A DNA stretch of 64,000 nucleotides from Deltaproteobacteria bacterium. Lineage in GTDB: Bacteria; Myxococcota_A; Polyangia; Polyangiales; Houyiibacteriaceae. Made by a program: the position numbers and the translations under genes. The DNA is taken from NCBI GenBank assembly GCA_034670305.1, contig JAXMNT010000015.1:64001-128000 (forward strand), read 5' to 3'. Below, in pieces: positions 34,120-34,877 of this stretch. A model generated the notes under the pieces. It did no database searches, was not told the origin of the DNA, and saw only the letters and a program-made list of their open reading frames with translations. Every line of letters starts with the position of its first letter. Within the stretch, counting starts at the first letter, position 1.

Positions 34120-34408
34120 GACAGCGACAGAGACAGAGACAGAGACAGAGACAGAGACAGAGACAGAGACAGAGACAGAGACAGCGACAGACACAGCGAC
34201 AGCGACAGAGACAGCGACAGCGACAGACACAGCGACAGCGACAGACACAGCGACAGCGACAGACACAGCGACAGCGACAGCGACAGACACAGCGACAGAC
34301 ACAGCGACAGCGACAGCGACAGCGACAGCGACAGCGACAGACACAGCGACAGCGACAGCGACAGACACAGCGACAGCGACAGACACAGCGACAGCGACAG
34401 CGACAGCG
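34120..34408. repeat. Mosaic hexamer array (GAGACA/GCGACA/GACACA)
   Basis: About 48 tandem units; abuts the hairpin downstream of the four-helix-bundle gene. Confidence 0.97.
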
Positions 34409-34409
34409 C

Positions 34410-34435
34410 GGCCGGCGCCCCGAGGGACGCCGGCC
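34410..34435 (-). other. Conserved 3' hairpin of four-helix-bundle gene copy 1
   Basis: Sense strand GGCCGGCGUCC-CUCG-GGGCGCCGGCC, 6 nt after the stop; homologous hairpin at 59101-59137. Confidence 0.8.
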
Positions 34436-34441
34436 TCAATC

Positions 34442-34756
34442 TCAGCGGCTGAGCTTGTAGAGCATCGCGCACACGTGGTCGCACTGGTCGAGGAGCGCCT
34501 CGTCCACCTCCACGTACCCGAAGACCTCGGCCAGCTGCATCGCAGCCTTCAGCTCGCTGCACTCGCCGTACGCAATCGAGAACTTGTCGTGACAACGAAG
34601 CCCTCGCGCCTGCCGAGCCTCCGCGATGTTGAGGACCACGCCCTGCGCCGCCCGCTGCATCTGAGAAGCGAGCGAAGCGTCGTGCTTGCGAACGCTCGGC
34701 AGCACCTGAGCGCGCAGCGAACGCACGAGTTCAAAAGAAGTTTGTAGAACGATCAT
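34442..34756 (-). CDS. Four-helix-bundle protein (23S rRNA-IVP / Avd-like family)
   Basis: [19 protein letters not shown]...[10 protein letters not shown] matches the L.DQ..RA..SI..NIAEG...F.IA.GS..E family pattern; alternative GTG start at 34777. Confidence 0.88.
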
Positions 34757-34793
34757 CGGAGACCCCTGTGTGAACACGACCGAGCGACATGCC

Positions 34794-34877
34794 CGGCGGC
34801 CGCAGGCCGCCGTCGTCTGGCGGGTCAGGGGTCAAGGGCGAAGCGGCGCGCAGGCGCCGGGCCGAAGGCACCCTTGA
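34794..34877. repeat. REP-like multi-hairpin element upstream of the four-helix-bundle gene
   Basis: CGGCGGCC-GCA-GGCCGCCG; outer stem TCAAGGG...CCCTTGA enclosing GCGAAGC and GCC-GAA-GGC mini-hairpins. Confidence 0.6.

Follow-up and report, generated by a model that had tools for sequence, protein, structure and literature searches.

The window (i.e., the whole 64,000-nucleotide stretch of DNA that was analyzed, from a 7.93-Mb genome with a G+C content of 68% whose gene content points to a myxobacterium) carries two paralogous genes for a small four-helix-bundle protein, at 34442 to 34756 and 59144 to 59392 on the minus strand (Table 1). A preliminary description of this DNA had reported that 75 of 82 residues are identical between the two and had combined the gene, a 3' hairpin, and a tail of tandem hexamers into one candidate module. 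We confirmed the identity and the difference in tail unit between the copies (TGTCGC/TGTCTC in copy 1 and TTCCGC in copy 2). The module is real in the sequence, yet it makes up just the 3' portion of a longer unit, whose conserved leader (34757 to 35017) and 5' hexamer array (35018 to 35124) had been missed. The small gene is part of a multicopy mobile cassette that encodes neither a transposase nor a reverse transcriptase (RT).

Table 1. Features of the two cassette copies and of neighboring elements (window coordinates)
Feature	Position	Strand	Remark
Copy 1 5' hexamer array; units on the gene strand, TTCCGC/TACCGC	35018..35124	-	5' array present at 31 of 37 loci
Distal leader with two short CTCC-GAA-GGAG mini-hairpins (read on the plus strand)	34920..35017	-	Common to subfamilies A and B
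Long nested inverted repeat of the leader, core CTCAAGGG...CCCTTGAC	34790..34919	-	
Promoter-like TTGAGG-N17-CACGCT	34874..34902	+	Directed outward, not toward the gene, in duplex DNA
Conserved region for translation initiation, with CAGGGG 7 nt upstream of ATG	34757..34789	-	
Four-helix-bundle gene, copy 1, subfamily A, 104 amino acids, intact	34442..34756	-	TIGR02436 and PF05635 matches
3' hairpin of copy 1, 11 bp, U.G pair on the sense strand	34410..34435	-	Terminator-like
3' hexamer array of copy 1, TGTCGC/TGTCTC	34120..34408	-	Extends up to the rpsO terminator
Four-helix-bundle gene, copy 2, subfamily A, 5' truncated, codons 23 to 104	59144..59392	-	Without leader
Copy 2 3' hairpin, whose loop contains a 10-nt duplication	59101..59137	-	
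3' array of copy 2, (TTCCGC)n	59027..59102	-	
High-copy palindromic element (about 48 to 70 genome matches)	59453..59745	.	Unrelated to the cassette; occupies the place of the copy 2 5' end
RAYT-like Y1 transposase gene	61750..62463	-	One of 11 dispersed genome copies

The genome contains 37 PF05635/TIGR02436 loci, which fall into subfamilies A (9 loci), B (14 loci), and C (14 loci). The cassette reads, in order, 5' hexamer array, foldable leader of ~250 nt (about 230 to 300 nt across loci), gene, subfamily-specific hairpin, and, often, 3' array. The 37 sites are unrelated, scattered, and intergenic; both window copies lie between protein genes, and the remaining loci are flanked by called genes or close to a contig end. 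Tandem copies are present at C46 and C1 of the genome. Matches to a leader profile occurred solely before these genes, in truncated or interrupted copies, and in leader fragments, including four ORF-less derivatives in which the leader is joined to the hairpin and the ORF is deleted (each of them single and different in the profile search).

Copy 1 lies next to rpsO, which has a promoter (TTGACC-N16-CATACT) at 33654 to 33681 and a terminator at 34079 to 34107. The usual neighbor of rpsO is pnp; here, the cassette is found downstream instead. Read as its reverse complement, the 3' array of copy 1 is of the 5' array type of subfamily B (GACAGC/GACAGA); speculatively, it may be what is left of a lost convergent partner. 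The rpsO/L,D-transpeptidase adjacency is absent from all 17 relatives' loci examined, so this site permits no empty-site reading. Contigs from four DNA sequencing runs of a single study, compared over 34409 to 35017 (the stretch between the arrays), agree exactly with pieces of copy 1 and contain no joint; these runs may be the source data, and a comparison confined to that stretch would not reveal empty sites.

Copy 2 is a 5'-truncated remnant that lacks codons 1 to 22 and the leader. The 10-nt direct duplication in its hairpin loop (59108 to 59128) is possibly an insertion footprint; the same letters open a palindromic insertion in the C19 leader. Small palindromic elements at 62848 to 63000, 59453 to 59745, and 61530 to 61580 of the window (about 78, 48 to 70, and 27 genome copies, respectively) insert into cassette leaders, ORFs, the IS5-type insertion sequence (IS) described below as family D, and RAYT arms. 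The preliminary description had named the PPIase/FHA-EBP adjacency around copy 2 as a place to look for empty sites. None of the relatives' 29 loci has a gene copy at this site, and the seven that keep the adjacency, all from other genera, have neither gene nor array there.

Comparisons with relatives confirmed a mobile, nonsyntenic cassette (below, G000 is the genome of the window, and the other G numbers are relatives' genomes). PF05635 matches were found in 27 of 40 relatives, with up to 31 matches each. In a quick tree, subfamilies A, B, and C, which expanded within this lineage, cluster together (support, 85), and other genomes have expansions of their own. Downstream of a TerC-like gene, the metagenome relative L181 (89% nucleotide identity) has an array and a subfamily A cassette, whereas the corresponding site of G000 (C10) contains nothing but (GGCTTC)4; this is the one filled/empty pair with a seed array, and the change may have been a gain or a loss. 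A second metagenome relative, L180 (96% nucleotide identity in the flank), has, at a site that is unfilled in G000, an intact subfamily A cassette that is flanked by arrays on neither side. No close relatives by protein were found in viral_contigs or genome_contigs, and no relative of the subfamily C leader pattern was found in viral_contigs. Near-identical pairs of copies share inner array units, leader, gene, and hairpin; homology fades inside the arrays, and the outer flanks are unrelated. No terminal repeats or target duplications were detected in such pairs of A, B, and C. Four-gamete incompatibility was compared with simulations without recombination (A, 1/200; B, 16/200; C, 18/200), and it exceeded the simulations in A but not significantly in B or C. 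The mosaics could be partly assembly chimeras.

The protein of copy 1 scores 56.7 bits against TIGR02436 (cutoff, 24) and 54.2 bits against PF05635 (cutoff, 33.8), and copy 2 also exceeds both cutoffs. The predicted structure of copy 1 (pLDDT, 97.7) resembles 2GSC and 2RLD (TM, 0.83 to 0.85; sequence match to 2GSC, E = 5.9e-6; 2GSC has five chains) and, at a greater distance, Avd (4DWL and 8UB7; TM, 0.72 to 0.75). The Avd-like fold that had been proposed from the letters of the DNA is thus confirmed by the predicted structure (TM of about 0.73 to Avd 4DWL). A search for longer (fusion) proteins returned four singletons with PF05635 only, which is weak evidence. Seven replacements separate copies 1 and 2. 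The earlier statement that differences in the middle of the ORF are all synonymous holds for codons 30 to 82 except for G39S, and six further replacements are located in codons 83 to 100. The purifying selection proposed on that ground is well supported by the whole set: dN/dS, with the four broken ORFs left out, is 0.10 in A, 0.14 in B, and 0.05 in C (dS, 0.43 to 0.60; mean within-subfamily nucleotide identity, 87%), and 33 of the 37 ORFs are intact. Together with the failure of the ORF-less derivatives to amplify, this selection suggests that the protein is needed in cis.

Hexamer arrays are strongly associated with the cassette. A 5' array lies within 360 nt upstream at 31 of the 37 loci, compared with 349 of 4,406 control genes (7.9%). 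The enrichment near the stop codon that the preliminary description had proposed to test was also found, with a 3' array within 100 nt at 21 of the 37 loci and 592 of the 4,406 control genes (13.4%). The control set is a crude call (4,406 ORFs; 76% coding), and since the 37 loci are kin copies, binomial P values for the enrichment are too strong. Among relatives, 54 of 69 evaluable ORFs have a 5' array and 12 of 78 have a 3' array, the 78 ORFs being best hits from 18 relatives rather than all copies. The link is specific, since none of the 11 copies of a RAYT-like dispersed element has an array within 700 nt. Arrays are direct in subfamilies A and C; in subfamily B, the 5' and 3' units are unlike, and the arrays are therefore partly cargo.

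Genome-wide, there are 1,038 hexamer arrays that total 166 kb (2% of the genome). The suggestion that the cassette seeds them was not shown by this census, in which just 119 arrays are within 120 nt of a piece of a cassette or IS (mostly IS) and 919 are not. Six arrays in the window have no cassette piece near them (5117 to 5292, 14223 to 14327, 22535 to 22755, 25432 to 25504, 39520 to 39838, and 57554 to 57771). Intergenic arrays favor convergent gaps (277/665 versus 816/4,301). In 80-kb samples of 10 relatives, we counted five period-6 arrays in 320 kb from four high-copy genomes and one in 480 kb from six low-copy genomes; the sample of G013 (17 copies) had none. The trend of array density with cassette copy number among relatives is weak.

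The leader folds into a long, nested stem in which compensatory pairs occur among members of the same subfamily (the alignments exclude 8 interrupted or truncated entries). Its core, GT(A/C)AA-NNN...NNN-TTGAC, has NNN pairs that change across five other genomes (37 of the relatives' 78 ORFs) and is absent from 41 of the 78. A short regular expression for this core gave 44 matches, compared with about 32 expected under a Markov model (not significant alone); of the 44, 30 stand before the gene, and a further 10 are such cores read on the reverse strand. The nested inverted repeat of the copy 1 leader (34790 to 34919) has branched hairpins with 3-nt loops that read GAA or GCA on the template (plus) strand. 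Triloops of the cGNAg kind are unusually stable in DNA. Among 207 perfect 3-nt-loop stems in 36 leaders, cGNAg occurs 85 times on the template strand and 3 times on the sense strand, with all four bases at N; the corresponding counts for control genes are 108 and 80 of 2,422 stems. The same template-strand bias is present in G012 (29 versus 3) and G013 (23 versus 2). The two leader strands differ in DNA folding energy by only 1 to 2 kcal/mol.

On the reverse strand, the 5' arm of the leader reads TTGAC, TTGAG, or TTTAC, followed after 16 to 18 nt by xAxxxT, i.e., a promoter-like geometry directed outward. It is found in 7/7 A, 13/15 B, and 10/11 C leaders and also in G013, G019, G024, and G036, while no leader has it facing the gene (background, 6 to 7%). 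This -35/-10 geometry at 16 to 18 nt is present in 7 of 10 leader groups, with a weak -10 box, and is absent from G012, where none of 21 leaders has T at -7. Gene-facing TTGAC sites of G000 also carry this geometry more often than those in coding DNA (67/246 versus 144/3,425), and at -12 they have C as the base ranking second in frequency. Most exact -10 hexamers of the leaders are missing among these sites. A generic promoter scanner did not call the copy 1 signal (34874 to 34902). We tentatively suggest that the leader works as folded single-stranded DNA.

The leader also bears on a different explanation, which we consider unlikely, namely, that this is a host-serving multicopy gene with an autoregulatory RNA leader, that the arrays are its binding sites or by-products, and that ordinary duplication and conversion multiplied it with no selfish advantage. 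Strong purifying selection suits such a gene. The cassette folds well as RNA (z = -4.1), its leader pairs are compensatory, and Avd binds RNA according to the relevant portions of PMC6182149. In G002, G008, and G036, the ribosome-binding site or start codon lies buried in a hairpin of the leader. (A second leader type, seen at L004, L006, L010, L012, and L109, is one near-perfect long hairpin that buries either of these two.) However, the loops interchange among TTC, TGC, TAC, and TCC on the sense strand, a pattern that matches cGNAg of DNA on the opposite strand rather than cUUCGg of RNA. No Rfam family reached gathering level in six cassette loci, nor was any rRNA detected there. Host dosage is, in addition, hard to reconcile with PF05635 matches that range from 0 to 47 per genome and with sites that differ at 89 to 96% identity.

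The 3' layout described earlier (6-nt spacer, 11-bp hairpin, array) is present in both window copies, but the spacer varies from 5 to 7 nt across subfamily A. Pairing of the stem through G.U also stood up, with 99% of positions paired in 10 copies and four one-sided changes of the G.U type, but no two-sided compensatory change was found (6 interrupted or truncated entries were dropped from the hairpin alignments). Of the relatives' 78 ORFs, 38 face a convergent partner with which they have a single hairpin in common, located between the two stop codons, as expected of a terminator; the hairpin is therefore terminator-like and would end the transcript as an ordinary terminator or 3' stabilizer. 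(A folding-energy count for 3' regions in relatives had no control and was left out.) Different subfamilies stand tail to tail over one hairpin at L004, L077, L078, L080, L102, L104, and L108 (G002, G012, G013, and G008), each member with its own leader and array; no tail-to-tail pair was found in G000.

These observations largely refute the proposal that the cassette has a retroelement- or telomerase-like 3' end, in which the hairpin primes or templates the hexamer tail and an RT is aided by the Avd-like protein. We now regard it as very improbable, even though it would accommodate the Avd fold, the sense-strand G.U hairpin, the variable tails, and 5'-truncated copies such as copy 2. The 5' array is commoner than the 3' array (31 versus 21 of 37), and 5' arrays are more constant than 3' tails, here and in relatives. 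Convergent pairs share the hairpin, and the truncation of copy 2 counts against retrotransposition because it coincides with another, palindromic element. Variation among cassette copies is not adenine biased (the spectrum is mainly G>A, C>T, and G>C). The genome has three RT genes (L021, L022, and L023), none adjacent to a cassette; the two that were scanned match retron models best, below cutoff, and the third looks like them by eye. The C10 RT (L022) is, for its part, directly followed by a long hexamer array. Nor did a co-occurring RT, a search for which the preliminary description had proposed, appear consistently among relatives: with the queries used in this survey of RT and Y1 genes, no RT match was found in G015 (99% complete; 10 copies) or G032 (92%; 9 copies), while G007 has 12 RT matches and one cassette copy.

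It had also been stated that no catalytic partner is visible next to either copy. As a qualification, the RAYT-like Y1 gene (flanked by inverted repeats at about 61390 to 61620 and 62620 to 62790) is 2.4 kb from copy 2. The 11 RAYT-like copies of the genome (68 to 97% nucleotide identity; dN/dS, about 0.16) each sit in long nested inverted repeats, and their number is unusual because RAYTs are described as typically single-copy genes. Four-helix-bundle genes also travel in another element: family D, an IS5-type element with 102 left ends, 91 right ends, and a duplicated TAG (e.g., L179, G000 C14:16222-16833), carries a fourth such gene as a passenger and has inverted (GGGCAA)n arms at both ends. 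One copy lies just beyond the window (C15:131400-132300). Family D interiors are either fragmented or interrupted by the end of a contig, and none yielded a full transposase.

Such neighbors raise the alternative of a nonautonomous cassette moved in trans by an HUH/Y1, RAYT-like, or other transposase that recognizes the folded leader, with arrays growing later by slippage at hairpin bases. HUH enzymes are suited by folded single-stranded DNA, and the template-strand fold with its GNA triloops would be a fitting substrate; the four-helix-bundle passenger of an IS5-type element with about 100 ends, the arrayless cassette of L180, and the subfamily B 3' arrays, which begin in register with the hairpin arm, are likewise what this alternative would lead one to expect. 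We nevertheless consider it improbable. The cassette has no fixed ends, and the Y1 profile PF01797 gave no match in G012 (one contig, complete; 31 copies) or G002 (100%; 16 copies). Furthermore, the ORF-less derivatives have not been amplified, although passive cargo should need no ORF.

On balance, we favor a multicopy cassette that spreads by DNA-level recombination through the arrays, without an encoded transposase, and put the probability of this reading at roughly 0.45. Its first step, to which we give an even chance, would be the gain, replacement, and loss of copies by host homologous recombination or gene conversion, with hexamer runs serving as landing pads. Fuzzy ends, tandem copies, and mosaics would follow from such recombination via the arrays. 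The second step is more tentative. In duplex DNA, the promoter of the leader may face the array, away from the gene. Should the template strand be single, as in incoming DNA or an intermediate of recombination, the 3' arm may instead serve as the template, and the promoter would read into the gene. The protein would then probably be made when the DNA is single-stranded. In a third step, which we find less likely again, an Avd-like oligomer might bind the single strand or repeat RNA of its own cassette and favor establishment; selection would act in cis because the oligomer would favor the cassette that encodes it. A bolder version, which we consider doubtful, is a selfish element without a catalytic gene, silent in duplex DNA, with a hairpin promoter active in single strands and a protein that steers host recombination into arrays.

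No prior description of the cassette was found in the literature searched (mostly open-access papers, main texts). It is a variant of the S23p/IVS kind of element. The closest described elements are the S23p-encoding 23S rRNA intervening sequences of Coxiella and Leptospira (PMC4990558), which are sporadic and selfish looking and encode the same protein family. In the Coxiella element, heptamer repeats in varying number precede the ORF, and a role of this ORF in mobility was proposed but not demonstrated. Unlike these sequences, the cassette occurs as 37 dispersed copies between protein genes, not inside rRNA, and is not enclosed by one terminal (RNase III) stem; instead, leader and hairpin fold locally, the leader of ~250 nt is dedicated, and the ORF is under purifying selection rather than in decay.

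PF05635 is already in print as an Avd homologue (PMC10053308, in the part concerned), and the role of Avd in diversity-generating retroelements is treated in part of PMC6182149. The modeled four-helix bundle makes nucleic acid binding plausible, as in Avd, but identity to Avd is 10 to 14%, net positive charge is mild (+2 to +4), neither an adjacent retroelement RT nor adenine mutagenesis was found, and no TR/VR pair is apparent. With the Frpo/ssi promoters of plasmid leading regions, which are active when their strand is single-stranded and folded (PMC9849209, in the part concerned), the leader shares by analogy a long stem-loop with -35/-10 boxes, which could likewise become active in the single-stranded state. 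It differs in being chromosomal, in its weak -10 box, and in lacking a conjugative context, and the likeness is one of geometry. As in REPIN-RAYT systems, a gene is embedded in a repeat type scattered genome-wide that, when intergenic, favors convergent gaps; however, the repeats here are tandem hexamers, the multicopy gene lacks a catalytic motif, and co-occurrence with Y1 genes is inconsistent. CGTC-tagged REPs were also considered and set aside; the portions of PMC3733652 concerned make no mention of myxobacteria. Finally, IS5 elements and MITEs with passenger genes have a counterpart here in family D, which alone has terminal inverted repeats, the TAG duplication, and fixed ends, whereas subfamilies A, B, and C lack all three.

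If the favored reading is true, a gene multiplies in a bacterial chromosome without a transposase and is tied to intergenic tandem repeats. If the selfish version is true, the cassette spreads itself and maintains or expands ~1,000 hexamer arrays (2% of the genome), PF05635 gains a function, and one kind of bacterial short tandem repeat is explained. PF05635 is widespread and has solved structures, and its only characterized structural relative is Avd. The 33 intact copies under purifying selection, together with the filled and empty alleles in close relatives, thus provide a testable handle on the role of this family.
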